The position numbers were made by a program, and so were the translations under genes. 32,487 nt of DNA from Rhizaria sp. SCN 62-66 (taxonomy: Eukaryota). Positions 3,771 through 32,487 of this stretch are shown piece after piece. The DNA lies in the NCBI GenBank assembly GCA_001724265.1, contig MEDY01000340.1:1-32487 (forward strand), given 5' to 3'. Within the stretch, counting starts at the first letter, position 1. Each line of letters opens with the position of its first letter. The notes under the pieces were generated by a model, which searched no databases, was not told the DNA's origin, and worked only from the letters and a program-made list of their open reading frames with translations.

Positions 3771-6700
3771 ATGCCCCTCCCTAACCGCGGTCCAAAGGCC
3801 ACCGGCGAAGACATGCGCCGTCTCCACCAACGCACTATCACCCAAGTTTACTCGTTTATGGAAATCCTCCACGACCACACCTGCAACCGCAACCGTAGCA
3901 ACCGCCCCAGCGACGACCCAGCCTCAGACGCGGACTCACTTTCCTCGCACAGCTCCTTTTACGCCGGTGCTGACCAGGCTTCCTTGGGCCCGTTGGCGGC
4001 GCGCGTTCCTCGCGCCACTGCCTGCTACACCGACGCACAAGCCCTCGTCAGCTCCATCGCCGCCTTGGGCGAGAGCACTGAGGAGCTCACCCGAGCCCTG
4101 CGAATGCTCGGGCTTCCGGCGTCTCTGTTGGTCGCCGGAGGGGAGGTGCTGCCCGCGCCCGGCGCCGCGCCCGCTGACCCGGCCGCCCCGCGCCGCGTCG
4201 TCATGATGGCGACCCCCCCTGATAACGACTACAACTACGACGACATCAACAACAGCAATCACTGTTATAACGCTGGTTGCGCGAAGACAAACAACCCTAG
4301 TGTCAATGGCCACCACTGTGCGCCGGCGGCGGGTCATGCGTCGCTTTCCACACTGTATCCCGCCCCCGTCCCCGCGCCAGCGCCTGTGCCGTCCCAATCT
4401 AACAACTCCATCTTCTCGACACCCAAAAAAAACAAGTCTAGCTTGAACACCCGTGGTATGGTCAACAACAGCGCTGTCTCCGGCGCTGTTGCCGCTGGTA
4501 ACTGCGGTGCGGATGAGGTTACTGCCTTGCCCCAGCCTGAGCTATTACACGTCGCCCCTTCCCCTCCCGCCCCCCTAGTCGCCGCCGCCGCCGCCGCTGC
4601 TGCTGCTGCCTCGAATGGGAGTGGACATGTGGTGGGCGTATCGGCTGCGTCGTCGCCGGCACTCTCGGCCTCAGCGTCCCTCCCCCGCGCCGACTGGGTG
4701 GCCGAAGACGCCTCGTGGACCAAACCTGCTGAAGAAGAAGAAACTGCTGAGCTACGCCGCCGCGCACTCGCCGCCGCACTTAATGTCCCAGTCAACTCTC
4801 TCCCTCCCGCCGCTGACGCCGAGGCCGCCCGCGCCGCCGCTGCCCATGTCTGCCCTCAGTCACCCGCGAATGTGCTCGCTGCCCGCTTGCGCTCAGCTCC
4901 GCAAGTTAAGCCGGCACCATTGCGGTTCAAAAAGCTCTCCAAGCTCGGCCAAGGCGCGTTTGGCGAGGTTTTTAAGGTGTTAATGATTGAGACGGGCGCC
5001 GTCATGGCGCTGAAGCAGTTTCGCCGCGCTACCGCTGACGAGCGTCGCCACGCGGAGGCTGTGGCGCGGGAAGTCCGGCTTATGCAGAGGCTGCGGCACC
5101 CGCATGTGGTGACATTTTTCGGAACTTTCGAGGCCAAAGACTCGCTCGCGGTGCTGATGGAGTACGCTCCCGGCGCCTCACTGCACGCTCTCCTGCGCGA
5201 CACCGGCGGACTCTCAGAGCCGCTCGCGCGTCGCGCCACGCGACAAGTCTGTCTCGCGCTGGCGCACTGCCACGCCCATCACATCGTGCACCGTGACATC
5301 AAATCGCATAACCTGTTGCTTGACGCGTTTGGACACGTCAAAGTAGCCGATTTTGGCTCTGCACGCGTGCTTGACCGTGCGCACGCCGCCACGGCCGCCA
5401 ACGCGGCCGACTTCACCCCGCTTTGGGCCGCACCAGAGGTTCTGGAGCGCGGGCCGCAGGGAGCCGCGGTGGACATCTGGGCTCTTGGCTGCACGGTGAT
5501 CGAGATGGCGACAGGCCGTGACCCGTGGGCTGAGTGCCGCTTCTCCACTCTCCCACAGGCCATTGCGCACATCGCGGAGCCGGGTTCATTGCCCGCAATG
5601 CCGGCGACGCTGTCAGCGCTCGGCCGAGACTTTGTCAGTCAGTGTCTGCAAAGGGATCAAACGATGCGGCCAACCGCTGCGCAGTTGCTCGATCATCCTT
5701 GGCTTGCAGATGCTGAAGCTCAAACGACCGTAACTGCTGTAAACACTTCGGTTTCGGAGACTGCCGCTGCCGCTGCCGCTGCAGCGACTGGGACCACTCA
5801 GAGCACTAAGAATGCAAGTGTGGCCGTAGCGGCGCCTGTTACTGCGAACGCAACCGCTGCGACCGCTGCAACCGCTGCGGCCGCCGCCGCCGTTGCTGCT
5901 GCTGCTGCTGTTGCTGGTCAAGTTAGTGAAGCTGCTATTGGTGACTTGAAGGCTGCCTCAGTTGCAGCGCAGTTGCATCAGTTGCAAGCGCAAGTCCAGC
6001 AGAATCACTCGCGATCCCACTCGCACCTGCATGCCCAGCGACTGCGTTCATCGCCTCAACAGCAACAGCAGTATCATCAGAGCGAGTCGAGCCAGCAGCA
6101 GCAGTCGTTTACGTCCTGCGCCGACACCACCGCTGGCGACGCGAGCGTTATGCTCGCGGTGCACGATGCGTCACTGTCAATGGTGCGCGCATTAGACGGC
6201 AGCGCTGCAGACTCTTTCGCGCTTACAGACACCACAAGCACGGGTGGCTTTGAGTATAGCACTCGCACTAGCGCTGGCGCTGGCATTGCGGATGCTGCTG
6301 ATTGCCCTCAGTCAGCTCTGGTTAATAACTCGGTGGCGATGACTGATACTGACGGCAACTACAGTGACAGTATCTTGAACAATATCAGCGCATTCACTCC
6401 TACTGTTGCTGCTAGCAACAGCGATGACAGCGTCGCGAGTTTTAACGGCGCAGTAAGCAACAGCAGCTCCAACAGTGTCAACAACAAGACGTCTCCTACT
6501 ACTACTGCAGTTGCTGCTCCTGCTACTGTTGATGTTGATGTTGCTACAATGGCAATGACGGATACTGAGACAGACAAACCCTTGCTCGCCACCACAACCT
6601 CCGTCCTCACTCCCACTGCACCGGTCACTCCGGCGGTGTCTCCCGCATTATCTGCAGCGAAGCCTGTAACCAATAGCACTGGCCCCGCTTGCGGCAGCGC

Positions 6701-9700
6701 CAGTGCCAGCACCAGTGCACGTGTGAGTCGTGCCAACTCCGCTGTCGCGGTTGGCCGGACCGCACATATGTCCGAGGGGGCTGCCGTGGCCGCCGCAGTC
6801 TCCGCCGCCGCTGCAGCCGCCGTCGTTGCCAACTTGGCCGCCATGCCACCGCCATCGTCGGTATCGGCCCGGTTAAAGAGCTTGCACCCCTCACAGTCTC
6901 AGTCTCAGTCTCGGTCACAGTCTCGGTCTCAGTCCCAGTCTCAGTCCCAGAGCCTCACTTCGCAGCCGCAGGCGCAGTTGCAGCCACATGTAGTCAGCGC
7001 GGCCCCTCGTGCCAGTGCTCGGCCGCCGCTGTCACGCACCAGCAGCGGCCTTCTACCCGGAGCCAACGCCACCGCCACGGCCACAGCATCCGCGACTGCA
7101 AATGTGACCACAAACTGGGGCAGTGCTGAATGTGGCGTCCCGAGCTCTCGCACCTGCGCTGGTGGCAATAGCAGTGGAAATCGCAGTGGAAACCCGACCC
7201 CTGGAGCTGTGCGCAGTGCGTTCACGTCCCCTCGCGGCGGCTCCGTCGTCCGCCCCCCTTCGACTCCCGGCTCCGGGTGCGGTTCGGTCTCCGTCGCTCG
7301 GCTCGACGAGAGCCAACTGCGGGTCGAACTGACGCAGGCCCGTGAAGCAGTGGCGGAATTATCGGCCATCTCGGCCACGCATGCGGCGGAAAGCAGGAGG
7401 CTGGCGGCGCAGCTATTAGAGCTGCAGGGGCAGATGCAGGCGTTGCAGCGGAGTAACCAGCATGAAAACTCTCAAAGTTTTACTCGGAACGGCGCGAGAA
7501 GTGGGGACACAAGCGCCGCCGCCAGTAACATTGGCAGCAGAAGTGGCAGCAGCAATAGTAACAACAGTTACGGCGATGGTAGCGGCAATGGCCAAAGCCA
7601 GATTCAGAGCCAGAGCCAGAGCCAGAGTAGCTGCAATGGAAGCACGGTCGGAACGCCTAAGGCCGGCCCTGCCACCACCCGAATGCCTGCTGCTGCATCG
7701 ATGCCCTACTCCAGCTACAGCCCTCACGCTAATGGTACCACAAACGGTCAGCAGCAGCAACAGGGTGTGAACGACGGACCTATTCGCGTGCCAGCCTTGC
7801 CGCTAGGCTCCTCATTCCCCTACGCCACCAGTGATCTACTCGCCAGTGTGACAACGTCGCACGGTTCGACCCCCGGCACAGGGCCGTGTTTTGGCGCTGA
7901 GGGGCCATTTGTGCAGCCCCCGCAATCACTGCATTTACCCGTCAGTGTCAGCGTCGGTGCGCACTCGCACTCGAAGTCACAATCTGCTCTGATGGCACAG
8001 CCACAGGCTGCTATGATGGCACAGGCACAGGCTGCGGCGCGTGCGCATGCAGACGCCGCTGTTGCGCAGACTCTCGCTGCAGCGACGCAGTTTGCCTCCG
8101 GTAACAACTCGACGGAAAGACAAGTTATTCCTGCTGCTGCTGCTGCTGCTGCTATGAAGAAAAATAGTAACAATGCACAGCGGCTTCCGTCTGTTCAGGA
8201 CGGCTCTCCCGGTGTCGGCCCCACCTTTGCCGCCGTTAGCATCAACAACTCCGACACAGTCACTGTCGTTAACAACAACGCTGCAGCCGCTGCTGTTGTT
8301 GCTGCTGCTTCTGCGGGTGTTACTATGGGGGATGGCGATCGCATCAGTCCACGTGCTATGTTTTCCGCGACACAGCCCACTCAGGCGTCCGCGAGTTTTG
8401 CTGCTGCTGCTACAACGACTGCAGTTGGTGGCGGTGCTGTTACTGCAGTGTTGACGCCGGTTGAGCCCACACGCTCGTGCTCAGTCATGATGCGTTCTCT
8501 CGACATAAACGGCAAGAACAGCATCAACAACAACAGCAATAATCACAGCAACTGCGACACTGATAATGTTCCCAGCTGTAGCCCTCGGCGCCGCACCGTC
8601 GCCGCATCTGCCCTTCTTACTCCCATCAGCAATCGCAACAACAACAACAATAGTAACAACAGCAATATCAGTCCCCAGTTGCTGTCTTCGCCCTTATTCG
8701 CCGCCAGTGGTACGCTGCCCCTCAGCGCCAGCCAAGACGCTGCCCTCGCCTCGGCCTCGCTACGGTCCCTCGCGCCCGGTACACTCGGCGCAGTCGTCTC
8801 CGGCAGTGGCCTGTTTAGCAACAGCGGCATGTTTAGCAACAGCGGCGGCATTAGCGGCGGCGAGGCAAACTTTAACGACAACGCGTCGCCTAATAAGCTT
8901 AGTGCAAGCGCAAACGCATCCCTGCCACGGTCGTTTATTAGCTCCTCCTCTCGCGCGTTTGCCCCCACACGGGCCCCTCACGCCGCCGCGGCTATTGCAC
9001 CTCCTGCCGCTTTGGCAGGGTCGCTCGGCCTCGGCCTGGCCGGCGCGGCCGCGGCGGAGGCGGCGGAGGCCAGTGTGGCGTTCCAAGAGGAAGAGAATGC
9101 GGCTTTTAACGCGCAGTATGGCGCTGAGGCGATGCCTGACACCCGCGGCACCAATCTCCGTGCGGCGCGCCGTTTCCTGTTCAACGCCGCCAATAACGAC
9201 CAAAACAACAGCCAAAATGGTAACCACGACCATAGCCCTCCACCAGTTGTTAACTTGAACGCGAGCTTTGCCGCGGTAGCTGCTGTGCGTAACCGTCGTG
9301 CGAGTGAACCTAGCGATGATGAAACCGACGACACCGACAACTCTGTGCGTTTCCTGCCGACTGTGTTGAAGCCTGTTGCTTTACACTACGGCGACGCTCA
9401 TGCTTCTGCTGCTGCGGCGGCGGCGCCGTCAGTGCCGTCAGTGCACAACACGCCCATGCGCCATCCCGCGGTTTCTCTCACCGGCCGTCTCGGTGGCGTA
9501 AACGCAGTGGCGCACACAGGCAATGTTGGGGGTGACCTAAATAGCAGTGGTGGCAACAACTCCCCACCCTATCCGACCCCCGGCTCTGCAATTGGTGCTA
9601 CTGCTGCTGTTGTTGCATCGTCATCTGCTCGTGGGGTAAAGCGTCGCACGCCGTCTCTGTCCATTCTCCCTGCCGAGCCCTGGAGCAGCAACAGCAACAG

Positions 9701-11999
9701 CGGCGGCGGCAGTGGTGGCAGTTGCGGGGACGGAGATAGTGAAGACGATGTAGCTGCCCAGGAAGCCGCCATGCGTTACGCCTCAGCACTGTACGCTCGC
9801 GCGCAACAGCAACAACAACAGCAGCATCAGTTGCATCGGCCGCTGTTGTCTGTCACCACTGCGGTTGTCCATCACATCGATAATGGTGACGATGACGACA
9901 TGTTTGCCGACACGGGCGCTCTCGACGCCGCGCTCGATGCGGCTGCTGCGATGGCTGCGGCCCACAGCAGTAGCTGGGACGTGTTGGAGCCCCGCACAAA
10001 GCGCGCCCGCAGCCCTCATGTCGGTGACCAGCTCGCTCCCCTCGGTGCCAGCGCTGCGCATCTGCCTAGCGCAGTCCAATTTACTCTGGGTGCCGTGTCT
10101 AGCGCTGTTGCTTTCGGTGCCGTGCCGAGCGATGCTGCTACGGGTGCGGGTGCTGTGCCGAGCACTGTCACCAGCCCCGCGCTGGCGTCTCGACACTTCC
10201 AACCCCTCGCTGCTGCTGCTGCTGCTGATGCTGCTATTGTTGGTGGTCTGTCCACGCCCCCGCGTGTCCCGGCCCCGAGCGCTCTGGGCGCAATGGGCGC
10301 TGTCCCCAGTCCGGGCTCGGCGTTTACACTTGCTCGCCCCGCGCATTCCCCAGCACCGGGGGCTAGCCGAGAGCAGCCGTTTGTGAGTGCTTTTGGCCGG
10401 GCCAACCCTACCGCCGCCGCCGCCGCTGCCGCTGCTTCTGGTGCAGCTGCAAACGGTGTCGCTGCAACGGGTGAGATGAAGGCGCCGCCGTTGCCGCTGA
10501 GTGGTTGGAAGTCAGTTGTGCCCTCTGGCCGCCTGCATCGGAGTGACCGTCGGCGCAGTGACCGTAACCGTGACCGTGAGCATGACCGTGACCGTGAGCG
10601 CGGGGACCGTGAGCGTGGTGGGTGGCTGAGTAGTCTCAGCGACGAAGACTGCACCACATCTACCACCGACGACGACGACAACAACAGCGCTATCGACGTG
10701 AAAGCTGGTGCTGCTGCGGCGGCGTCTATGGACCGTAATCGGACACCGATGGATGCACTGTCACAGGAGATGGCCCGCCGCCGCGCTATCGCCCACGCAG
10801 CCGCTATGGCCGAGCTCCAGCGCACACAACAACGACACCAACAGCACCAACAACAGCAACAGCAGCAGATTACGCTGCTTCAACAACAGGAGTTTACCCA
10901 GCACCAGCAACAACAACAGGATGTCGCTGCGTCGTTGACTGCAGCTCTCACAGTAGCCCGGCCTCGCAGTGCAAATCAGCAGCAGCCTTACTGTGGCACA
11001 AGCCTCCCCTTTGATGCCGTTCGGCCTGGCCCCGAGCCCTCGTTCGCACCCGTGCTGCCAACCTCGGCCGCTCGCCCCGCCACTGCCACTATGGCCCCCT
11101 CGGCCTTCGCCGCCCGCCCCGCTACTGCTGTAGACTTCCTTTCTGCTAACATGACACGCTCTATTGCTGCGCCCCTCTCTGCCTTAGCTGGGAACCGCCC
11201 CTCCACAATGGCTTCCTTTTCGTCGTCAGCTCTGGCCCGCCCCGCAACTGCTGTGTCATTCTCCCCCGCTGAAGCCCGTTCTGACACTATTGACCGCCGC
11301 TTCAACATTAATGCTGCGGCCTTCCCCACTGCTGAAGCCGATTCTGCCACCGTAAACAGCTCTATCACTGCTAATGTTACCGCGTCTGCTGCTGCTACTG
11401 CTACTGCTACTGCTGTTGTTGATGTTGATTTGGGCGTTGCAGAGCAGGCTGTGACGCCGCGACGGACTGTGGCGTCGGCGATGATGCGCCCGCCAGCCAC
11501 CGCACTCTCCGTTGTCTGCTCTGGCGTTTTGCTGCGTGACAATGACACCGTGACATCATGCTCCGACAATAACAACGCGAATAACGACGACGTCGTCGAC
11601 GACGACGATGGCAATAATGGCCATAATAACAATGCTGAACAATGGGGTGACGCCATGATTGCGTCAGTCCGCGACAGTACTGAACTCGCCCAAACGGACT
11701 TCTCCGCCAGCGGTCTCGCCGCCGCTGCTGCTGCGGCTGTTGCATTGACCCCCACTAGCGGCACGCGCAGTGGCTGTGTCAGCCACAATATGGGCGGGTT
11801 CGTCTCGATGGCGAGTCCGCTAGTGCAGAGCGTTGCGTCAACGGCCTCGGCAGCGGCGGCGGCGGCAGTAAGTGAAGCTCGTCTCGGCGCCAACAACAGC
11901 GCGATTGACAATGATAGTGAATCCACCGCTGCTGTTGCGGAGTGTGAGGACGCGGATCTCGTTGCAGGCGTTGTTTATATGACTGATGACGCTGCGTAA
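3771..11999 (+). CDS. Giant intronless Ser/Thr kinase, STE11/MAP3K (MEKK/NPK1)-like, 2742 aa; kinase domain at ~4926-5706 followed by ~2000 aa of low-complexity tail
   Basis: LGQGAFGEV, MALKQ, HRDIKSHNLL, DFG, TPLWAAPE and DIWALGCTVIEMATGRDPW, the last typical of MAP3Ks. First in-frame ATG is 3771 (the ORF-track start at 3696 is TTG; in-frame TAA at 3624). Ends TAA. Confidence 0.9.
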   Translation: MPLPNRGPKATGEDMRRLHQRTITQVYSFMEILHDHTCNRNRSNRPSDDPASDADSLSSHSSFYAGADQASLGPLAARVPRATACYTDAQALVSSIAALGESTEELTRALRMLGLPASLLVAGGEVLPAPGAAPADPAAPRRVVMMATPPDNDYNYDDINNSNHCYNAGCAKTNNPSVNGHHCAPAAGHASLSTLYPAPVPAPAPVPSQSNNSIFSTPKKNKSSLNTRGMVNNSAVSGAVAAGNCGADEVTALPQPELLHVAPSPPAPLVAAAAAAAAAASNGSGHVVGVSAASSPALSASASLPRADWVAEDASWTKPAEEEETAELRRRALAAALNVPVNSLPPAADAEAARAAAAHVCPQSPANVLAARLRSAPQVKPAPLRFKKLSKLGQGAFGEVFKVLMIETGAVMALKQFRRATADERRHAEAVAREVRLMQRLRHPHVVTFFGTFEAKDSLAVLMEYAPGASLHALLRDTGGLSEPLARRATRQVCLALAHCHAHHIVHRDIKSHNLLLDAFGHVKVADFGSARVLDRAHAATAANAADFTPLWAAPEVLERGPQGAAVDIWALGCTVIEMATGRDPWAECRFSTLPQAIAHIAEPGSLPAMPATLSALGRDFVSQCLQRDQTMRPTAAQLLDHPWLADAEAQTTVTAVNTSVSETAAAAAAAATGTTQSTKNASVAVAAPVTANATAATAATAAAAAAVAAAAAVAGQVSEAAIGDLKAASVAAQLHQLQAQVQQNHSRSHSHLHAQRLRSSPQQQQQYHQSESSQQQQSFTSCADTTAGDASVMLAVHDASLSMVRALDGSAADSFALTDTTSTGGFEYSTRTSAGAGIADAADCPQSALVNNSVAMTDTDGNYSDSILNNISAFTPTVAASNSDDSVASFNGAVSNSSSNSVNNKTSPTTTAVAAPATVDVDVATMAMTDTETDKPLLATTTSVLTPTAPVTPAVSPALSAAKPVTNSTGPACGSASASTSARVSRANSAVAVGRTAHMSEGAAVAAAVSAAAAAAVVANLAAMPPPSSVSARLKSLHPSQSQSQSRSQSRSQSQSQSQSLTSQPQAQLQPHVVSAAPRASARPPLSRTSSGLLPGANATATATASATANVTTNWGSAECGVPSSRTCAGGNSSGNRSGNPTPGAVRSAFTSPRGGSVVRPPSTPGSGCGSVSVARLDESQLRVELTQAREAVAELSAISATHAAESRRLAAQLLELQGQMQALQRSNQHENSQSFTRNGARSGDTSAAASNIGSRSGSSNSNNSYGDGSGNGQSQIQSQSQSQSSCNGSTVGTPKAGPATTRMPAAASMPYSSYSPHANGTTNGQQQQQGVNDGPIRVPALPLGSSFPYATSDLLASVTTSHGSTPGTGPCFGAEGPFVQPPQSLHLPVSVSVGAHSHSKSQSALMAQPQAAMMAQAQAAARAHADAAVAQTLAAATQFASGNNSTERQVIPAAAAAAAMKKNSNNAQRLPSVQDGSPGVGPTFAAVSINNSDTVTVVNNNAAAAAVVAAASAGVTMGDGDRISPRAMFSATQPTQASASFAAAATTTAVGGGAVTAVLTPVEPTRSCSVMMRSLDINGKNSINNNSNNHSNCDTDNVPSCSPRRRTVAASALLTPISNRNNNNNSNNSNISPQLLSSPLFAASGTLPLSASQDAALASASLRSLAPGTLGAVVSGSGLFSNSGMFSNSGGISGGEANFNDNASPNKLSASANASLPRSFISSSSRAFAPTRAPHAAAAIAPPAALAGSLGLGLAGAAAAEAAEASVAFQEEENAAFNAQYGAEAMPDTRGTNLRAARRFLFNAANNDQNNSQNGNHDHSPPPVVNLNASFAAVAAVRNRRASEPSDDETDDTDNSVRFLPTVLKPVALHYGDAHASAAAAAAPSVPSVHNTPMRHPAVSLTGRLGGVNAVAHTGNVGGDLNSSGGNNSPPYPTPGSAIGATAAVVASSSARGVKRRTPSLSILPAEPWSSNSNSGGGSGGSCGDGDSEDDVAAQEAAMRYASALYARAQQQQQQQHQLHRPLLSVTTAVVHHIDNGDDDDMFADTGALDAALDAAAAMAAAHSSSWDVLEPRTKRARSPHVGDQLAPLGASAAHLPSAVQFTLGAVSSAVAFGAVPSDAATGAGAVPSTVTSPALASRHFQPLAAAAAADAAIVGGLSTPPRVPAPSALGAMGAVPSPGSAFTLARPAHSPAPGASREQPFVSAFGRANPTAAAAAAAASGAAANGVAATGEMKAPPLPLSGWKSVVPSGRLHRSDRRRSDRNRDREHDRDRERGDRERGGWLSSLSDEDCTTSTTDDDDNNSAIDVKAGAAAAASMDRNRTPMDALSQEMARRRAIAHAAAMAELQRTQQRHQQHQQQQQQQITLLQQQEFTQHQQQQQDVAASLTAALTVARPRSANQQQPYCGTSLPFDAVRPGPEPSFAPVLPTSAARPATATMAPSAFAARPATAVDFLSANMTRSIAAPLSALAGNRPSTMASFSSSALARPATAVSFSPAEARSDTIDRRFNINAAAFPTAEADSATVNSSITANVTASAAATATATAVVDVDLGVAEQAVTPRRTVASAMMRPPATALSVVCSGVLLRDNDTVTSCSDNNNANNDDVVDDDDGNNGHNNNAEQWGDAMIASVRDSTELAQTDFSASGLAAAAAAAVALTPTSGTRSGCVSHNMGGFVSMASPLVQSVASTASAAAAAAVSEARLGANNSAIDNDSESTAAVAECEDADLVAGVVYMTDDAA
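6892..6953 (+). repeat. CAGTCT/CGGTCT hexamer microsatellite encoding an (SQ/SR)n run in the MAP3K
   Basis: tcacagtctcagtctcagtctcggtcacagtctcggtctcagtcccagtctcagtcccagagc, translated SQSQSQSRSQSRSQSQSQSQS. Confidence 0.8.
10545..10617 (+). repeat. GACCGT/GAGCGT hexamer repeat encoding an alternating-charge RD/RE tract in the MAP3K tail
   Basis: Translated DRRRSDRNRDREHDRDRERGDRER. Confidence 0.75.
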
Positions 12000-21109: not shown

Positions 21110-22178
21110 TTACTCACTGCCGCCGAAAGCAGGTTGTGCCGGGACAGGGGTAACTCCAGCGTTTGAGCTGGCATTGCTGTCTCCCCGCCTCAGACCCCTG
21201 CGCTGGGGTGTCGGGGACAGCCGGTCAGCGCCAGACCCGCCGCCGCCGCCCACGGTCACACTCTGACTCTGGGGCTGACCGGTGGTGGGGGCGAGAGATA
21301 GACCCTGGATCTGCCGGCCCAGTGAGAACGAGAACCTCGGAGTGTCCTCCGTGCCATTGTTGTTGCTGCTATAAACACCATTACCACTGCCAACACCCTA
21401 GCCATTGATATTATTTGCATTTGCATTTGCGTTGTTGTTGTTATTAGGGTTTGAGTTGTTACTGTGCGAGTTTGAGCTTGCCCGGGGTGTCATCGTCAGC
21501 GGCGGCAGCATCGCAGGCGAGTTGCTGTGTTGCTGCAGCTGTACCTGCGCTGCCGAGGGAGCGGATGGATGCATTTCGACCAAGGACACGCCTGCGAGAC
21601 CGGCCAGCGGGAGCTTCGACCCCTTGGGCGACGGGGGGACTGACAGAGCAGTGCCACTGGCACTATTGTTACCAACAGTGGCGGCAGCGGCGGCAGAGGA
21701 AGTGAGGGGGATTTGCCCGTTCGTGGTCATACTGCGGCGAAACTGCGGAGTCGAGCTTCCTTGTTGCTGCTGTTGAGGCTGTGGCTGCGGTCCGGGGCCA
21801 CTGGTCGCGGTAAGGGAGACTGTGAGCCCTGATCCAGGGATGCCACCAACTGAGGGGTTGCTGTTGTTGGAGGCTCCGTGCGAGGGTGATTTGTGGCCAG
21901 AACCTGTGGGACGGGTGCGGGACGCGAGCGTGCTGTCCACGGTCAAGGCTGAGCTTGATCCGGCACGGTGTAGTGGAGCCTGTTGGCCTAGCTGCAACTG
22001 CTGCTGCTGTTGTTGTTGTTGTTGTTGCTGTTGTTGATAGTCGCCGCCGGCGGTCGGGCCGAGTGAGAAACCCGACGGCTGCTGCTGTTGCTGCATCTGC
22101 TGCATTTGTTGCTGCTGCATGTACTGTTGCTGCTGAGCGTGCGACGGTGACGCCGATGCTCCTAGCCCAGGGCTAAAA

Positions 22179-22216
<38 letters not shown>

Positions 22217-25200
22217 CTGCATCGCGAGTGAGACTGAGAGCCGCCCCTGGGACGACTGGCGCTGATGGTGCCCCTGCCCCTGCCCTTGGTACTGCTGCTG
22301 CTGTTGTTGATACTGCTGCTGCTGATGCTGCTGGAACTGGTTACTCGAGGACATGGCCGCTGCCGAGAGGATCGCGTCCCGGCCCCGGCGCGGGGACGGC
22401 GCTGACGGAACCATACTTCCCCCACCACCGTTAGTAGCATTAACACTCACATTATAGCCGGTATTGGGGTTGCCATTGAGGTTGTTGTTTGTGCTCACGT
22501 TCATGTTTGGACTGCTGCCCGAGGGGCCCAGCGGCGGAGACGGCATATGCGGCGACGGCGACGGGGACCTCTGCATCGTATTCACACCACCCACATTGCC
22601 ACTTCCAGTCAAACCACCGCCGACCAGAGGGGCGTTGTTGGCGCCAGTGCGGACCGACCGGGAGGAGTTGCTGATGACCGAGGGGGCACGTCCCTGTCCC
22701 TGCGCGGGCACGTACAGACGCATCCCATCGCGCGTGAGGCCAGACATCGCGTCCCCGGCCAGTGAGCCGCCGCCGTGCTGAGACCCTGCGGCGGAGCTGG
22801 TCGGCGAGTGCATGACCGAGGGAGCGGGGGAGTAGACCGACGCCGCCGGTGATCCGACAGGGGAGTAGTCGTACGCCGACGCGAGAGCTGAGCAGCGGAG
22901 CATGTTGGCACGCGTGGAGCCCAAGGCCTTGAACAACACGTGTTCTTGGGACACCTGCGCGCCTTCCAGCGACGGCTCGCGGGCGCGGCGGGAGGTTTCG
23001 AGACCGGCATCGTAGGCCGCCGCCGAGAGAGGCATCTGCTGCTGCTGGCCTTGCCCATACTGTTGTTGCTGCTGCTGACCGTAATACTGCCCACCACCGT
23101 AGTTCGTAGCGCCGGTTGCAGTGTCGACGTCTCCCAGCGCAGCGTAGTCAAACTCGTAGAAAAGCGGCTGCAGCTTGGGCGGCATCAACGGCGCCGGGGC
23201 ATCGTCATCCTCGCCACCCCCACCCTGCTGTTGCTGCTGCTGGGCCTGGGCCTGAGCTTGTTGGGCGGCGGCGATGGCGGCGGGGGAGCCTGGGGGGTGG
23301 GCGTTGATCGCGGCCTGCGCCTGCGCCTGCTGCTGCTGCTGCTGCTGGGAGGGGGGTGCGACGTACCTGTAGTTCTTGAACCCCTTCTGCGACGTGGGGA
23401 GGTTGGGGAAACACTTGTTCATGTACGCCGCGCGCTCGGCTTGCGGAATGGGCGGGAAAGGGGCCGGGCCACGGCGGTGTTCAATGGCCTCCCAGTCCAA
23501 CGACGCGAACCAGGGGTGGGATTTGACGGCGTTCCAGTGGAAATTGGTGTCGCTGTCGATCTCGTCCAGAGTGCGGGCAGCCCAGCCGTCCTTTTGCTTC
23601 AGACCGGGGGGACCGGAGGTGGCCGTGGGGGCCGGTGACGGGGACGGCTGAGCGCCGGGCCCCGGGGACGCCGCTGGAGAGCGCAGAGAGCCGCCGCCCC
23701 CCGCCCCGTTGTTAGGGACGCCAGGAACGGCGAAACGCGGGGAATCGACCGACATCACACCGTTATTGCCGTTGTTGCCGCCGAGGCCGGTTTGAGAGCC
23801 AGCGATGGAGTAGGCGTTGTTGGATGCGTTGCTGTTTGAGCGCGGACCAAGCTGCCTCACCTGGCCCTGCTGCTGCTGCTGCGACTGTGAGAGGCTCAGA
23901 GGAATCGACGCCTGGGGCAAGTGTAAGTGCCGCGTGCGGGGGCCGGGCGGGGTGTAGGTGATCACACCGTCCCCGTCCAAGTTCGCCGGCCAGTCTGTGT
24001 GACGGAAAAACTGGTGTGAGTAAGGGAAGTCGCTCAATAGTGTCGAGGCAGGGACACACGCGCCGGGCACCGGGAGCAGTTTACCCGCCTCGTCAGTATC
24101 GCCCGGCTGCGGCAGGTCGTGGAAGGGTAAGTGCCAGCCCTAAGTAGCCGCCTGGAGGAGTTGGCTGCGGTGGGCATCGAGGAGAGTGAACTGGCCGGGG
24201 TAGTGGGCTGCGGTGCCGAAGACGCCGCGGCTCGGGCTCGGGGTGCTCGGGACGACTTCCACGGTGATGGGCCCAGCTGCAGTGGTCGTAGTAACCAGTG
24301 TATGTGCCAACACGACCCCGGCGGCGGCGGCGGCGAGCGCGGCTGCCTGATCCAGATCCTCCAGTGAGTCCACCTCCGGCACAGTGAGCGAGCGCCCCTT
24401 CCGGACAAGCTCGGCACAGGCCTCACATCGGCATCCGGCGCAAGCGGGGCAGCCGCAGGGCACGGCGACCGGGATGGCGCGCGGGGCCAGGACCGCATGA
24501 GGCCCAGCGGCGGTGGCCACGGCGGCGAGGTTGTCGTTCATCGGGGCGGTACACGCAACCTGGTAGACGGGGACAGCGGAGAAACCCTCGAGGTTCAGAG
24601 CGCGGGCGGCGCGTTGAACGGCTTGCTGCGCTGAGGAGGCCGGCCCGGCGACGGCAGCAGGGATGGAGCGGTCGCTGCCGGCGCCGGCGCCGAGCGCGGC
24701 GGGGAAAGTGGGGGAGACCTGCTGCAGAGGAACATCGGTCGCCGGGTGGATGTGGTATATCTGGGCCATGCCGGGCACGTTCCCGTACCCGCGCACGTGG
24801 CCGTGGCCGATCCAGTGGCCCTCATCGGCGACAGCGACGGGGACCTTGACCGCGGTGAAGGTGTGGGGGAGAGCGCGGTCTAAGTGCGGGGGCAGGCCGA
24901 CGGAGAAGGCGGGCGGCCCCTGATAGTACTGCTGCTGCTGCTGCTGTTGCTGCATATGCTGCTGGTATTGGCCGTTGTTGATGTTGTTGTTGTGACAAGG
25001 GCAGGCGCATGAGCCCATCAAGTCAGGCCCGGGGCTGCGGGCGCCATCATCATCGCACGACCACAACATACGCTGCTGCTGCTGCTGCTGCTGACCGTTG
25101 GCTGTGACGCCGCTGCCGCCACGGCGAGGAGACGGCTGGGCCGCGATGTTGCTGTTGTTGTGGCCGCCGTGGAGACTCTGGGCGTGACCGGTGTTGCTGC

Positions 25201-26999
25201 CGGTGAAGTTGCCGTTGTTGCCGTTGGCGCCGAGGCCGAGAGCTGGGTCCTCCTCCTGAGTGGTGTGCGCGAGCCCGGGGGTCATCGAGGCACGCAGGGG
25301 AGGCCCGCCCGTGACAGAGCCAGACCCAGTGACGCCGAGACCGCTGAGGCCGCCGCCAGGAGTGTAGGGCGTGGCGAAACCACTGTTGGCGTAGCCGCCG
25401 CCGCTGTTGTTATGCCCCCCAGTGCAGCCACAGCTGCGGCACACGCCACCGGCTGTGGTAACCCCCAGATCAACCATGCCGGAAAACCCGCTGTTGGTGA
25501 GAGGTGGGTACACGCGGGGCGGGGCTGGGGCAGTGAAGTCGTTGTGGGGCAGACCGAGACGAACGCAGCGTTCAACCATGCGCATGCAGCTGAGTTCGCA
25601 GCCCAACCGGTCACAGGGGTTGGGTAAGGTGAGCCGCCGGATGAGGTCTTTGAATTCGCGGCTGAGGCGTGCGTTGGTTTTGAGGTCGTTGGGCGTGTTG
25701 GGGACGCCGGGGTGCAGGGACTGGGCCTTGCGGCGGCCGGTCACCATCTCGTACAGGGTTATTCCAAGGGAGTAAAAGTCGCAGGAGAAATCGTAGGCGT
25801 GGCCCGCGGCGGCTTCAGGAGACCGGTAGCCGCGGGTGCCGCCGCGGCCGACGATCGAGTAATGGTGGTCCTCCTCCAGCGGGCGGCAGAGGCCGTAATC
25901 GGTGACGGCGATGTGCCCGTCAGCGTCGATGAGCAGGTTGAGCGGCTTGATATCACGGTAAACGTAGAAGAGAGAGTGGATATGCTCCATCGCGAGGATG
26001 ATCTCGGCCGCACACAGCCGCACGATGTCCTCGGAGAGCCGTTGGGACGCCATGAGAGCCGAGTGGACATCGCCGCCGGTGTAGCAGGGCATGACGAGGA
26101 TGAGCTCTTCGCGTGTCTGGAAGGCGTGGAGGAGACGGACGACGTAGGGGGAGTGGGAGGCAACCATGACGGCACGTTCCATCCACAGCATCTATTGCAA
26201 CACAGCAGCAAAAGCAAGAGCAACAGCGCAAAAAGCAAAGCGAAAGAGAGAGAGGGGAGCAGAGGAGAAAGTTGAAGAAAGGTGAGGTTGGCAGAGGCGG
26301 ACATTCGGGATACAGCCAGAAAGGGTTTTTTGGGGAGAGGAAGAGAGTATAAGAGATAGAAATAAGTTGTTTTGTTTGCAAGCAAAGGTGACGTACGAGA
26401 GCGGAGGTTTTATCGGCCTCACAGATCGAGCGCTCGGCGAGTTGGGCATCGGTTAACCCTTCAGGTCCCTGTTGTGCCCGGTCAAGACCGAGCAAGCGTG
26501 CCTTGTTGATGCGCTTGACGGCAACGAGAGAGGAGAAATCGGGAACGCCCTTAGACTTTTCGCTAAGGCGGAGAGCGGCCTGGACGCGACCAAAGCCGCC
26601 GCGGCCGAGGGTCTGGGACGGGGGAAAAAGGGGAAAGGAAGCGGGAATGGAGCGGTGACAAGGGAAAGCATGTGCGGTAAGAATGGGACATAGAAAATGA
26701 CGAAAAGAGTCATGAAAAACAAAAGAGGAGAAAATCTGGCCGGGCTAATAAGGTATATGCGTAGTCTAAGTATCTGGTTATGGCATATTCGTCGAATAAG
26801 GAAGGGATCAAAGGCAAGAAAAGCCTTGTTTAGGTGGTGTGGAGGTGCTATGAACCACTAGTTAGTTTAGCTTCGATCACAGCACTCACAAACATCGAAA
26901 GGGACGGGAGTAAACCGGCAGTAAAGAAAAGTAACGTACCTTTCCGAGAAGGAAAGAGTCCAGGGAGATCTCCTGTGGTTGTGAAGCGCACAACCCCAT
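21110..26999 (-). CDS. AGC-group Ser/Thr kinase with N-myristoylation motif, ~1785 codons including two in-frame TAGs; exons 26999-26940, 26612-26397, 26191-21110
   Basis: Exon 1 MGLCASQPQEISLDSFLLGK; exon 2 TLGRGGFGRV...VAVKRI; exon 3 YRDIKPLN, DYG, GTRGYRSPE, DFYSLG, DRLGC. After the first TAG come WNAVKSHPWFASLDWEAIEHRRGPAPFPP and the hydrophobic motif FYEFDY. ORF-track pieces 24140-26191 and 21398-24070 are in the same frame, separated by one TAG. The frame continues 95 codons past the second TAG to TAA at 21112-21110. Confidence 0.88.
21980..22335 (-). repeat. Clustered CAG/CAA trinucleotide runs encoding polyglutamine tracts in the AGC kinase tail
   Basis: Several (ctg/ttg)n runs on the + strand, in frame as Q tracts on the - strand. 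Confidence 0.85.
26192..26396 (-). other. Intron 2 of the AGC kinase (205 nt, phase 0)
   Basis: CTC|GTACGT donor, pyrimidine-rich body, GCAATAG| acceptor. Joins the 72-codon exon 2 to MLWMERAVM (helix C region). Confidence 0.88.
26613..26939 (-). other. Intron 1 of the AGC kinase (327 nt, phase 0)
   Basis: AAG|GTACGT donor and long pyrimidine tract ending GTCCCAG|. Splicing gives FLLGK-TLGRGGFG, the expected lead-in to the glycine-rich loop. Confidence 0.88.
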
Positions 27000-28466: not shown

Positions 28467-29291
28467 TTACTCGCGGGACTGCTCACCAGCGGCAGCGGGC
28501 TTAGCGACATCAGTGGCATGGCCGGCAGCAACGAGGTTGGAGCGGACCTTGCGGATCTGGCGCTTCAGCTCCTGGGCATCCTCAAGGAAGGGGATGTAGA
28601 GCCAGACGCGGTTGAGGCACGGCATGGGCTTGCCGACGAGGAGCTGGGGGCAGGGGCAGCCAGTGGGGATGGAGGGGGGGCCCTGGCCGAGGGGCATGCA
28701 GGGGTTGCCCCAGATCTTGCCGCCGGCAGTGAAGCAGCAGGTGCCCTCACCGTGCATGAAGACGACCTCGCCGCACGAGTCGAAGCCGGTGGGGCAGCAG
28801 GAGCAGTGAGTGAGGAAAGGACGGCAGCAGTCGGGGACGGTAGAGAGCTGAGCAACGTCACGGTCGAGGTACAGAACCTGGGGGTTGTCGACGATTTGGT
28901 AGCAGACCGAGGAAGCGTAGTTGTACTCAATGCGGTCCTCGTAGAGGTGGACGTAGGAGGCCTTCTTGAGCTCAGAGGTGTGGCAGAGCGCGAAGGAGCA
29001 GGGGAACGCCTGGGTGGCGAGGAAGTGGAACAGCACGATGCGGTCAGAGATGGGAGCAGAGTAGATCAGGGTGGTGTTGCCGCCGTTAATGTTGATCTTC
29101 TCGGCAGCGAGCATGCCGGGGTAGCCGCACATGGGCTCCTTGGGGCCGGCGGGCTCGGCAGCAGCGGCGGGCTCAGCGGCAGCGGGCTCGGAGGCAGCGG
29201 GGGCCACGGCAGCGGCAGCGGGGGCAGCAGCAGGGGTGGCCTCGGCGGGGGTGGCCTCGGGAACGTCGGTGGTGTTAGGCTCAGCAGACAT
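28467..29291 (-). CDS. Cys-rich protein of unknown function, paralogue A, 274 aa, with Ala/Pro/Glu-rich N-terminus
   Basis: Strong C/G-ending codon bias, ATG...TAA, and colinear motifs shared with the 30964-31722 gene. Confidence 0.88.
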   Translation of the reverse strand: MSAEPNTTDVPEATPAEATPAAAPAAAAVAPAASEPAAAEPAAAAEPAGPKEPMCGYPGMLAAEKININGGNTTLIYSAPISDRIVLFHFLATQAFPCSFALCHTSELKKASYVHLYEDRIEYNYASSVCYQIVDNPQVLYLDRDVAQLSTVPDCCRPFLTHCSCCPTGFDSCGEVVFMHGEGTCCFTAGGKIWGNPCMPLGQGPPSIPTGCPCPQLLVGKPMPCLNRVWLYIPFLEDAQELKRQIRKVRSNLVAAGHATDVAKPAAAGEQSRE

Positions 29292-30963
29292 CGGTGACTA
29301 GATACGACGCAAACAATGTGGCGAGCACGGGGTGGTGTGAGAAGCGAGCAGATTCAAACGAGCGCAAGTGGCGCATACGAATGGTGAGGAAAAGATCGGG
29401 CGGAGTGGGCAGCAGAAAGAGTGAGATTTAGGACGAAAGATAGCTACATAGCTGGTGAAAAACCCGGAAATTGTGTTTTCCTAGCAAAGAGAAGTTTCAA
29501 TAAATCGCAAAACAAATCATAGAGCCGGGAGGTAGAGTGGAACATGGTGCGGATTCTTCGGGCAGCATGCCTCACGCGAACAAGTTTTGGCCCGCGTATT
29601 TCCATGTTCACTACAGCCTGCTGCATCATTGCTCGATCAAGAAAAAGAAACTAGAACGGTTGACAAGTTAAGAACTACGCCACATTTCGACTGACATTCG
29701 AACTGAACACAGAGGACGGCAGAAAGTCATGATTTCTTCTCGGTTTCGGGGCCCAACTCTTCGGTCGCCTGCCCATCCAGGCGTCGGTTTGGCGGCTTAA
29801 CTTCGATGTACTCGGTTCCGAAAAAATAACCATTTAAACGGCAAAAAATCACCCAACTCACCTAAGTGTAATTCGATGTTAATTTAAACAAATGTTGTGT
29901 TTTCTGTAAACCTATATGTTAATGCGACGTTTTTGAATTAAAGTGCTACAAATATTTTCGGAGCACTACTGAACAAGGCATCTAGTGCGAATTAAACGGA
30001 TATTGCGTGATAACAACGTATCGCAATGTATTCCTGACAGTTTTCACCAGCTGCCGCGTCCGAACGCACAGTAGGCGCACGCCAAAAGAAAAGTCGAGCA
30101 TGCATACATGATACCAGAGCAACCTGCGATTGCCAGTCCTCTTCCTAGTAACCACATAAGACTGTACGTAAAAGAGAAAAGACTGGAGAGTAAGCACTCG
30201 TATTGGGGTTTTGATATTTGCTGAATTTACAACACAGAGAACATATATGCATGAAACAAATTGGTGACGGAGGGGTGGCTTCACTGCCTCCTGCACAAAA
30301 ACTCAACACAACACTCGCACACAGTCAACCAAACAAACACAGTAAAAACACAGCGCAAGCCCACAGAGAGCATGGCTATGACTGAGAAACGGTGACTTTT
30401 GGGGGTGTGAAACACGGAAGAAGAGACGAGAGAGTGGAAAAGAGCAAGCGCACGGAAAACCAGCAGGGATAACACTTTGAAGACAGTTTCTTTTTTAAAG
30501 AGAGAGAAAAGAGCTGATGAAACGAGATTGACGGTAACGACGGTGGTGGTGCATGAGTTATCAATCACACGGAATGAGTGACTGAGAAGCTGGTCATGAG
30601 TGCTGGTATACAATGGGAAAGAGGGCAAAGGAGAGCGCACACGCAACAACACAAGTCTGTCGCGAGTCACGCAATAGATGTGATGTTTTGCACACTTGGT
30701 GTTTTTTTTACTTACATTACACATTCATACAGATATACTTGAGACACACTGTGCGTAGAGACGGGGGAGGGTGGTTTTATGATGGCAACACAAAGCGATA
30801 AAGCGATAAAGCAAACAAATAGCCTGATGGTCGATCTATCGTTTTGTGTTACGTCTCTGTGAGATTTGCAGTCACACAGAGACGCAAGCTGTCACACAAC
30901 GAGCGCATAAGTTTCGAGAGAGTGTTAAGTGTTATGAAACACGGACACACCAACGCAAGTTAC

Positions 30964-31722
30964 TTACGCGTCACGGGACTGCTCGCCCTCAGCGGGGGCC
31001 GCGGCGACACCGACAACCTTGCCCGCGACAACCTTGTGCGCCTCGACAATGGCAGCACGTTGGTCAGTGAGCTTCTGGATGAAGGTGTCAAGGCCGTCCT
31101 TATCGACGAAGGGGAAGCACACCCACTGCTCGTTGCCGATGGGGCAGAAGCCGAAGAGGCAAGGGCCACCGAGGCAGGCGCCAGTGCCGGCGGGGACGAG
31201 AGGGGAGGCGAAGCGGCGGCCACCGGCGCAGCAGACACCGTTGGTGGCGCCATGGCCGATGGCGGTAGTGCCGCACATGCCGCAGCCGTCGGGGCAGAGC
31301 ATGCAGTGGGTGAAGACGGGGAGGCAGGGGCCGGCCTGCTCGAACTTGGCAGCCCAGTCACGGTCGAAGTAGGAGACGGTGGTCATGTCCATAACCCAGC
31401 AGAGGCACGACATGGGGATGTTGGACTCGACGTGGTCGTCGTAGATACGGTGGAAGGTGTACTTGGCCAGCGCGTCGTGGTTGCAGATCATGCACGACAT
31501 GGGGGAGCAGATCGACATGGTGAGGTGGAAACACCGGAGGCCGTCCTTGGAAATGGGGGCATCGTAGACGAGGGTGGACGACTTGCCGGCAGCGTAAGTG
31601 GCAGCGATGGTGGACGACTTGGTGTCCATGATTCCGTAACGGAACTCCTTGCGGATGTAAGTCGGGTCATCGGTGGGGTCGTAGGCGGGGTCCTTCATGC
31701 GCTCGAGCTCGGCGTTGTCCAT
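30964..31722 (-). CDS. Cys-rich protein of unknown function, paralogue B, 252 aa
   Basis: Codon bias starts at ATG 31722 (MDNAELERMK); the ORF-track extension to 32049 is a pyrimidine-rich non-coding leader. Shares TLxYxAPIS, YxDxxExN, YxDRD, THCxxCPxGxxxCG and GEQSR with paralogue A. Ends TAA. Confidence 0.88.
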   Translation of the reverse strand: MDNAELERMKDPAYDPTDDPTYIRKEFRYGIMDTKSSTIAATYAAGKSSTLVYDAPISKDGLRCFHLTMSICSPMSCMICNHDALAKYTFHRIYDDHVESNIPMSCLCWVMDMTTVSYFDRDWAAKFEQAGPCLPVFTHCMLCPDGCGMCGTTAIGHGATNGVCCAGGRRFASPLVPAGTGACLGGPCLFGFCPIGNEQWVCFPFVDKDGLDTFIQKLTDQRAAIVEAHKVVAGKVVGVAAAPAEGEQSRDA

Positions 31723-32487
31723 TGTGTGAGACTGAGGCAGGACAAAATGCGAAAGGGGTGGGTTGTGGTGGGAGAGATATCGAGGCACGAGGCGTGGATT
31801 GGACGAGCGGTTAACCGGGATTGGGGAAGCAAGATGAAGTCCGATGGAAAATGCGAGTGGAGAACAAGTTGGAATATAAAAAGACAGAAATTGTAGAGCA
31901 AAAGAAAACGGGCGCCAATGATTGTCAGCCGAGGAAACGCAGGGGAGCGGAATGAGGAGACAGGTAGGGCAGAACAGGATGAGTGGGCAACAAGAAAAAA
32001 GATAAAAAGCGGTAGGGAATGAGATGTTAGGAGAATTTAGGCTTGTCAAGAGAAAAAACTAGACGTAAAAAAGTGTGTGTTCATTCGCAGATTCGTATTA
32101 AGACAGATAGAAAGCTAGAAAGTCACGCCAAGAGGAAATGGAGCTGCGCCCGTGCACACGAAACCAAGCGCTTCCGTCAAAAACCACAGTCCTGATGAAC
32201 GCCGGTATTGAAAAGACGTGGGACACGACATGAACATAGAATCGAGTCGGGTAAAGCATTGAAGATAGATCACATCCTAAATCACTGGAGTGCTGTCGCG
32301 CAAAACACTTGATTTCAACTCCCTCGGTCCAGCTTCGGCCGAGACTGCTCCAGAATATAAATTAAGCCGCGGTGTGGTTTGACTGATTATTGATATTTTG
32401 AGAACCCCAACGGAAGGGACGGGGCAGGTGGTGTCGAAGAGTGCGCAACTACAATGTGAGATTGCTAACCATTTGCGCACAAACACG

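Follow-up and report, generated by a model that had tools for sequence, protein, structure and literature searches.

A kinase gene with two in-frame TAG codons

The window, meaning the whole stretch of DNA analyzed (32,487 nucleotides [nt] of contig MEDY01000340.1 from Rhizaria sp. SCN 62-66, assembly GCA_001724265.1), is a 32.5-kb eukaryotic contig bearing several genes, with GC-rich exons (approximately 0.6 to 0.69) and with introns, untranslated regions (UTRs), and spacers that are low in GC and rich in CT. On the minus strand, running from 26999 to 21110, lies one three-exon gene for an AGC-type protein kinase, the frame of which holds two TAG codons ahead of a TAA. Exon borders were set by homology to the intronless orthologous protein P0201 and by sequence signals. 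Exon 1 (26940 to 26999; MGLCASQPQEISLDSFLLGK, 20 amino acids [aa]) was located by tblastn of P0201 residues 1 to 20 (60% identity) and is followed by the donor GTACGT. Its N-terminal MGxCxS (MGLCAS here, MGACSS in an orthologue) is presumably a myristoylation/palmitoylation signal, a type of start that suggests a membrane-anchored kinase. Intron 1 (26613 to 26939; 327 nt, GTACGT...CCCAG) has a GC content of 0.45 and a pyrimidine content of 0.68, and exon 2 (26397 to 26612; 72 codons), which tblastn aligned to P0201 residues 6 to 86, supplies the glycine loop GRGGFGRV and the VAVK lysine. Intron 2 (26192 to 26396; 205 nt, GTACGT...AATAG) is pyrimidine rich with a GC content of 0.46, and P0201 crosses this junction unbroken. 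Exon 3 opens with the catalytic core from helix alpha-C to DRLG (25598 to 26191; residues 1 to 198 of the exon), which includes YRDIKPLN and DYG and was assigned by matches to Pfam Pkinase and RSK2. A second orthologue, P0199, begins with MLWMERAVMV, which is the start of exon 3, suggesting that it shares intron 2. The orthologous kinase of the nearest sampled relative (positions 9989 to 12715 of L001, a 22.7-kb part of the 298-kb contig encoding P0201) is intronless; the gene in the window has two introns.

Following the core, an insert of approximately 670 residues (23591 to 25597), which on alignment with the orthologues extends from DRLG to DGW and is lineage specific, contains the first TAG (24140 to 24142, context ACT TAG GGC). 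It is followed by the conserved block DGWAARTLDEIDSDTNFHWNAVKSHPWFASLDWEAIEHRRGPAPFPP (23444 to 23590), assigned to the alpha-I helix and the start of the AGC C-tail from PKA, our own AGC profile, the orthologues, and a model of one of them, and then by FYEFDY (23144 to 23161), a hydrophobic motif in which an acidic residue occupies the phospho-site according to its alignment with LFVDFEF of the orthologues. A lengthy C-terminal region rich in Q, N, S, and G (21401 to 23143) continues in frame and free of stops, with a coding score of 0.37 just before the second TAG (21398 to 21400, context GGC TAG GGT). The upstream kinase open reading frame (ORF; 26191 to 24143) contributes 683 aa of exon 3 ahead of the first TAG, so that the product up to this codon has 20 + 72 + 683 = 775 aa. 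This is the length given by the original prediction, made from the letters of this stretch, which also proved exact in placing WNAVKSHPWFASLDWEAIEHRRGPAPFPP (23536 to 23450) and FYEFDY (23161 to 23144) past the TAG at 24142 to 24140 and in frame with the kinase ORF upstream of it.

The first TAG is genuine DNA sequence, being identical in contigs of the runs X3, X4, and X5, from three further studies. No differences from the window were found in the X3 contig (23610 to 25375) or the X5 contig (24018 to 24382), and one was found in the X4 contig (23612 to 24473), at 23695. The database proteins P0198, P0203, and P0204 (from three, three, and one contigs, respectively) all end in ...LLQAAT, at the first TAG, and the copies seen, which come from four or more studies between 2015 and 2025, share the same sequence, with the limit that contigs drop rare variants and a minor CAG allele at the first TAG could go unseen. 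The single X4 difference, C to T on the plus strand, corresponds to Gly833Ser in the low-complexity part past the first TAG and is the only strain difference over 7.5 kb.

Beyond the first TAG the frame stays open for 913 codons, more than chance would give (the five alternative frames across the gene have 126 to 248 open codons), and no frameshift, TAA, or TGA was found in the 1,693 codons of the exon 3 frame. Past the second TAG (21400 to 21398), the frame runs for a further 96 codons with a normal coding signature (21113 to 21397) to the TAA at 21112 to 21110. The frame-0 score of these codons, 0.43, compares with 0.49 ± 0.15 for coding windows and with −0.36 and −0.46 for the other two frames, and no intergenic window (of 396) or off-frame window (of 298) scored as high. 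Directly after the TAA the score falls to −0.40, and the sequence is T rich with a GC content of 0.33 to 0.46 and pyrimidines of approximately 0.7. The coding signature past the second TAG and the UTR-like composition after the TAA thus indicate that this TAA (21110 to 21112) is the likely true end of the gene and that both TAGs are internal to it.

A poly(A) RNA run, X7, showed no splice joint at either intron; its contigs at 26305 to 26569 and 26542 to 26750 cross both introns and leave exon 1 uncovered. As this run may contain DNA or unspliced RNA, nothing was concluded from it on splicing or expression. Fifteen joints listed in the runs were rejected as repeat artifacts, all lying between places with CAG repeats and having short sides (18 to 33 letters).

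Kinase core, tail, and orthologues

The part before the first TAG matched Pfam Pkinase over positions 46 to 255 of 263 (E value, 5.8e-38) and RSK2 over residues 75 to 273 (E value, 3.5e-32), the latter match stopping at DRLG. The best PDB matches of the core, with E values of 3.5e-32 to 1e-26, were RSK2, RSK1, RSK4, MSK1, GRK1, GRK2, GRK6, MRCK, ROCK, PKA, SGK1, and AKT2, so that among AGC kinases it is closest to RSK, GRK, ROCK, and PKA, and the elements expected of a eukaryotic protein kinase core are all in place (the catalytic loop YRDIKPLN, the DFG-type DYG, the glycine loop, and the VAVK lysine). The original prediction had assigned the segment past the TAG to the last catalytic helix plus the AGC C-tail, and this was borne out for the helix and the start of the tail. 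The post-TAG piece matched residues 276 to 303 of PKA C-alpha (E value, 0.009, among 177,635 PDB sequences), and a profile built from 13 PKC/PKN sequences was split across the first TAG, with profile positions 65 to 252 before it and 258 to 286 after it (independent E value, 2.4e-4). Together these matches place the AGC C-tail signature (HPFF..DW...PPF.P) after alpha-I. BLASTP against a PKN likewise gave two collinear pieces, with residues 1 to 197 on PKN 874 to 1073 and residues 889 to 945 on PKN 1082 to 1153. In the suggested hidden Markov model check, Pkinase recognized the core, and Pfam Pkinase_C matched the tail of neither the window protein nor its orthologues.

HMMER was run exhaustively against 1.84 billion cluster representatives with the insert and tail as the query, the TAG being written as Q for the search only, and returned three matches: the upstream ORF of the window itself, P0199 (590 aa), and P0200, of which P0201 (904 aa) is the full-length cluster mate. 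Besides the window's own cluster, only two clusters among these representatives have this tail. P0199 and P0201, both from other metagenomes, carry the core, the insert, and the tail in one uninterrupted ORF, which indicates that the sequence past the first TAG belongs to the kinase in the window. The insert is approximately 155 and 217 residues long in the orthologues and approximately 670 residues in the window protein. Two tail blocks, DGW..R.L..ID.D.NF.WNA...HPWF...WE...RR and LFVDFEF, are common to all three proteins, FYEFDY being aligned with LFVDFEF of both orthologues and having the form F-x-x-F-[S/T/D/E]-[Y/F]; LFVDFEF of P0199 in turn falls in those columns of the AGC profile that represent the hydrophobic motif. 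It follows that FYEFDY is the hydrophobic motif of the family, as had been proposed. Another candidate, FKNYRY (23380 to 23363), which BLASTP put on FKDFTY of PKN, was rejected because the orthologues keep LFVDFEF at the position of FYEFDY.

In the core, the window protein is identical to P0199 at 151/218 residues and to P0201 at 148/220. In the tail the figures are 30/47 and 24/47 for the two orthologues, compared with 25/47 between the orthologues themselves; thus, the tail has not drifted faster in the lineage of the window, and termination at the first TAG would remove a module as conserved as it is between the orthologues. That the post-TAG part is a portion of the same protein is well supported by these comparisons. 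Two further searches added no orthologue: the whole read-through protein as a query was swamped by poly-Q matches (8,000 candidates, the best covering 9% of the query at 37% identity), and a 201-aa query spanning the first TAG found among longer proteins only P0198, the window's own.

AlphaFold prediction of P0199 from a 14-row alignment gave a mean pLDDT of 48.6, with a folded core and an insert predicted to be disordered (residues 217 to 355, pLDDT below 50). Residues 361 to 400 (pLDDT, 64 to 90) were placed where PKA has its alpha-I helix and tail. Using VIA-align, the model matched AGC kinases through alpha-I and the tail, namely RSK2 (5d9k_B) with a Z of 27.5 and a root mean square deviation (RMSD) of 2.3 over 207 aligned residues (model 1 to 396) and PKA (5n1o_A) with a Z of 25.7 and an RMSD of 2.2 over 223 aligned residues (model 1 to 405 on PKA 87 to 325). 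The hydrophobic motif was modeled at a pLDDT of approximately 37, and its docking on the N lobe is unsupported. The model is of an orthologue and depends on an input alignment that itself matched AGC tails to the segment; for the structural check that had been proposed on the read-through protein, it supplies a predicted position for the post-insert segment in P0199. Prediction of P0201 from a three-row alignment gave a mean pLDDT of 28.8, and this model was not used. The original claim that the kinase fold cannot be completed without passing the first TAG may accordingly be divided: the tail is conserved and is fused to the core in the orthologues, which supports well the view that the protein needs it, while its necessity for the fold of the window protein is suggested by the orthologues and the model of one of them.

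The protein resembles AGC kinases such as PKA, RSK, PKN/PKC, and GRK in having a ...HPWF..DW......PF.P segment followed by an F-x-x-F-[D/E]-[Y/F] motif, and it differs from them in the ~670-residue insert between RLG and alpha-I (155 to 217 residues in the orthologues), in its activation loop, and in the lack of a match to Pfam Pkinase_C. No Ser/Thr was found at the PDK1 site of [S/T]-F-C-G-T, the aligned position being Gly in IVGRGGTRGY (25840 to 25870) and likewise in both orthologues, and the hydrophobic motif of the family has Asp or Glu at the phospho-site position. These two substitutions suggest that the kinase family may be phosphorylation independent. The insert starts with CELSCMRMVERCVRLGLPHNDF (25530 to 25597), a conserved helix-like segment, rich in Cys, that comes after DRLG in all three orthologues; MAFFT aligned it with alpha-I of ordinary AGC kinases, and it had a pLDDT of approximately 47 in the orthologue model. 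As the window tail was misaligned in the alignment that included PKC/PKN rows (A3), only the core columns and the PKC/PKN rows of that alignment were used.

Decoding of TAG and alternative explanations

To account for the TAG codons, the original prediction had raised partial decoding as an on/off switch for the kinase, and this part of it found no support. Both TAGs are followed by G (TAG-GGC and TAG-GGT), and G directly after a stop codon is a strong termination context. RNA folds of 61 and 101 nt at both TAGs were no more stable than shuffled sequences (z scores of +1.8, −0.07, +1.6, and +2.3), so that neither a leaky context nor a stimulating downstream structure was found at either site. 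Of the other six genes in the window, four terminate with TAA, two with TGA, and none with TAG, giving five TAA and two TGA terminators when the kinase is included. The G context, the lack of RNA structure, the presence of a second, similar TAG, and the absence of TAG terminators fit organism-level decoding or recent nonsense better than a regulatory device.

We favor an explanation in which TAG is translated into an amino acid on the ribosomes of this organism, by either a UAG-only reassignment or near-complete suppression, and TAA and TGA stay stops. The three-exon gene would then encode a putatively N-terminally acylated, atypical AGC-family kinase of approximately 1,785 residues, in which a large low-complexity, lineage-specific insert would part the core (to DRLG) from the alpha-I helix, C-tail, and hydrophobic motif; both TAGs would be internal to the frame, and the TAA at 21112 to 21110 would be the real terminator. 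TAG would then be used only rarely as a sense codon, and its simplest source would be CAG (Gln), of which the gene has many codons. We infer the translation of TAG and its organism-wide scope from four observations that decoding by the organism would explain together: two TAGs are internal to the gene, the tail is intact and conserved, the gene ends in TAA, and TAG terminators are lacking. Organism-wide decoding by UAG-only reassignment or strong suppression, as opposed to a gene-specific switch, is given a probability of roughly 0.5. Full reassignment of TAG to sense is a narrower proposal and is put forward tentatively. It is also possible, although we stop short of calling it probable, that an unsampled, deep-branching eukaryote of activated sludge has turned UAG into a sense codon of rare use, with UAA and UGA as stops, while a relative still stops at UAG.

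Several observations weigh against organism-wide decoding. The nearest sampled relative, L001, terminates at TAG to judge from its sequence: TAG closes the ORF of its orthologous kinase and two more long ORFs, each followed by noncoding or UTR-like sequence, and the remaining three ORFs end in TAA, TAA, and TGA (the six were picked by eye from 27 listed). Any reassignment in the organism of the window would thus be recent. The contrast in TAG terminators between the window (0/6) and L001 (3/6) is weak (Fisher P = 0.09). Only two in-frame TAGs occur among approximately 6,900 codons in the window, both in one of seven genes, and ORFs of 2,790 and 914 codons have none. Both lie outside conserved alignment columns, so that the amino acid is not assignable, and a scan of the window found no tRNA gene and no Rfam match. 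The 96 codons after the first TAG have a coding score of 0.16, at approximately the 0.7th percentile of coding windows, although they still exceed all 396 intergenic windows and the other two frames. The X7 RNA run has no cover in 24014 to 24264, and no RNA contig includes the first TAG. Finally, 56 to 66% of the one-step nonsense changes available in the ORF give TAG, and two random hits would both be TAG in 32 to 43% of cases.

Sense codes limited to UAG with UAA as the main stop have been reported in the rhizarian exLh (UAG = Leu), in Iotanema spirale (UAG = Gln), and in phyllopharyngean ciliates (Leu or Gln), and the window resembles the cases described there in its in-frame UAG and its UAA/UGA stops (PMC5304391, PMC11687900). 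UAA is also the commoner stop in I. spirale (104 UAA versus 15 UGA; PMC5304391), as it is in the window, and UAG terminates no gene in the window sample. The known cases, however, rest on 384 UAG codons in 71 genes and 204 in 126 genes, with conserved positions and, in the ciliates, suppressor tRNAs, as given in the same sources (PMC5304391, PMC11687900), whereas in the window there are two codons in a single gene, neither at a conserved position, no tRNA gene was found, and the relative terminates at UAG. Very few eukaryotic lineages are known to have reassigned UAG alone, and the cases described are all mature, with UAG common in genes. A young reassignment outside the ciliates, with the codon still infrequent and with a Q-rich proteome in which stops arise most readily by CAG-to-TAG changes, would represent an early stage of codon capture in which the order of events (loss of UAG terminators, suppressor tRNA, and eRF1 change) could be tested. 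Gene callers using the standard code cut the kinase at 775 residues, as in P0198, P0203, and P0204, and if TAG is decoded, such truncation would run systematically through the proteomes of this organism. Were the TAGs plain nonsense mutations, the gene would be an ordinary young pseudogene.

Recent nonsense is the main rival, one that we regard as unlikely while granting that several of the above observations suit it. Two CAG-to-TAG or similar hits would have left a 775-aa core without a tail, encoded by a young pseudogene or null allele in which the TAGs are undecoded. Both stops are in one gene with none in the other ~5,100 codons, the exon 3 ORF contains 132 CAG codons (102 downstream of the first TAG), TAG is the most frequent one-step stop, the relative uses TAG as a stop, and the coding score just past the first TAG is weak. 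Against this, a repeat-rich stretch of 5 kb full of CAG shows two independent stops and not one frameshift, conservation of the tail equals that between intact orthologues, the same sequence recurs in all copies from the four or more studies, and the absence of TAG from the ends of the six other genes would have to be treated as a coincidence. No second intact copy was found, either in the three matches among the 1.84 billion representatives or in a later search, which added only the window's own protein. The marks of a pseudogene that were looked for in this gene (frameshift, lost conserved residues, and relaxed constraint past the first stop) were absent, which would confine nonsense to a very recent event.

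A small probability is assigned to leaky or gene-specific read-through under the standard code, with a near-cognate tRNA (e.g., tRNA-Gln) reading TAG in part and yielding little full-length kinase. In its favor, the mRNA is very rich in Gln codons (173 of 1,693). Against it, two successive events would multiply two small probabilities, both TAGs have G at +4, which favors termination, and no stimulating RNA structure was found. Read-through of premature stops in yeast is reported to rise with a QXQ context and with the Gln-codon content of the transcript (Leslie et al. 2026, preprint; PMC13192750). The kinase resembles that system in its Q-rich mRNA, its premature UAG, and the possible insertion of Gln by tRNA-Gln; it differs from what the preprint describes in having no QXQ at either TAG (T-TAG-G and G-TAG-G).

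Restorative RNA editing of UAG to UGG (A to I) in some life stage, as in filamentous ascomycetes, is very improbable here. The likeness is that an in-frame UAG has to be overcome for a full-length protein: the fungal system, as reported for PUK1, AMD1, and genes with premature stop codons, prefers UAG and repairs the kinase gene PUK1 and some 70 "pseudogenes" (PMC11156358, PMC10776026), and editing in the window gene would serve as a stage switch with the on/off behavior of the original prediction. Fungal editing is, however, described as preferring hairpin loops (PMC11156358), and none is predicted at the TAGs in the window. The organism is not a known ascomycete and is not near any named fungus, its RAD51 being at most 68% identical to named proteins. 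No edited RNA was observed, and the X7 contig over the second TAG (21218 to 21470), the only RNA-library contig there, shows no letter differing from the genomic window, with the reservation that the library may hold DNA and that contigs drop minor variants.

Removal of both TAGs by hidden introns was considered slightly less probable still, and an intronic location of the first TAG is very unlikely. The gene does have two real introns upstream, and its insert is approximately 450 residues longer than in the orthologues. Of the 3,726 GT..AG pairs spanning the first TAG, nine had acceptable signals (a donor with at least five of six consensus letters and an acceptor tract of at least 75% pyrimidines), but all nine candidates (987 to 1,685 nt; GC, 0.67 to 0.68) end at 23440 or beyond and would delete the conserved alpha-I block, so that none spares the conserved tail. 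Composition around the first TAG (GC, 0.60 to 0.71; pyrimidines, 0.50 to 0.60) is unlike that of the two real introns (GC, 0.39 to 0.51; pyrimidines up to 0.78), and frame-0 GC content at third codon positions (GC3) holds at 0.67 to 0.87. The low-GC stretch before the second TAG consists of purine-rich Asn codons and is not intron-like, and none of the runs showed a splice joint, a negative that carries no weight with RNA data this sparse.

Least probable is a pair of products, with the core ending at the first TAG and the tail starting from the first downstream ATG (residue 813, window position 23755), for although the coding score is weak over the 128 codons between the two, the orthologues have core and tail in one ORF, which tells against the separate downstream product that the original prediction had allowed for, frame-0 GC3 periodicity persists from approximately 24070, and reinitiation after a 775-codon ORF is not expected in eukaryotes.

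Source organism and other features of the window

Besides the kinase gene, the window contains RAD51, a 2,790-codon ORF with a kinase domain, a kinesin with a C-terminal motor, a coiled-coil ORF, and two tandem paralogues of an unknown family. The main RAD51 exon (603 to 1532, minus strand; 309 aa) shares 64 to 68% identity with named proteins from many supergroups, and its closest matches were two unnamed metagenome proteins at 75 to 76%; on this sequence evidence, the source organism is a member of a poorly sampled lineage. DNA runs bearing the window are bioreactor, wastewater, and activated-sludge metagenomes, at least half of the sampled words being present in four of the 15 runs listed. 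A scan of genome contigs gave no match to the kinase alignment and only archaeal RadA (43 to 51% identity) for RAD51, and a scan of viral contigs gave no match to the kinase and one unrelated match (44%) for RAD51. Among metagenome contigs, in a collection from which the contig of the window is absent, the kinase found only the relative L001 and three distant kinases (27 to 28% identity).

CAG/CTG repeat tracts at 22229 to 22340, 23225 to 23245, and 23860 to 23890 draw contigs of many other organisms, with a depth of up to 690 in one bin, and give rise to false joints in the read-run contigs. The single 2,790-codon ORF (3627 to 11999, plus strand) has one complete Pkinase domain (E value, 1.7e-67); outside this domain it is of low complexity, rich in Ala, Ser, Asn, and Gln, and it ends in TAA. 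The two tandem paralogues (28467 to 29297 and 30964 to 31725, minus strand) have Cys-rich C-terminal halves and matched no Pfam family, and a structure atlas, which for the neighboring paralogue gave no clue to the lineage, hinted only at a fold like that of bacterial PH domains or DUF7642 (TM score below 0.5).

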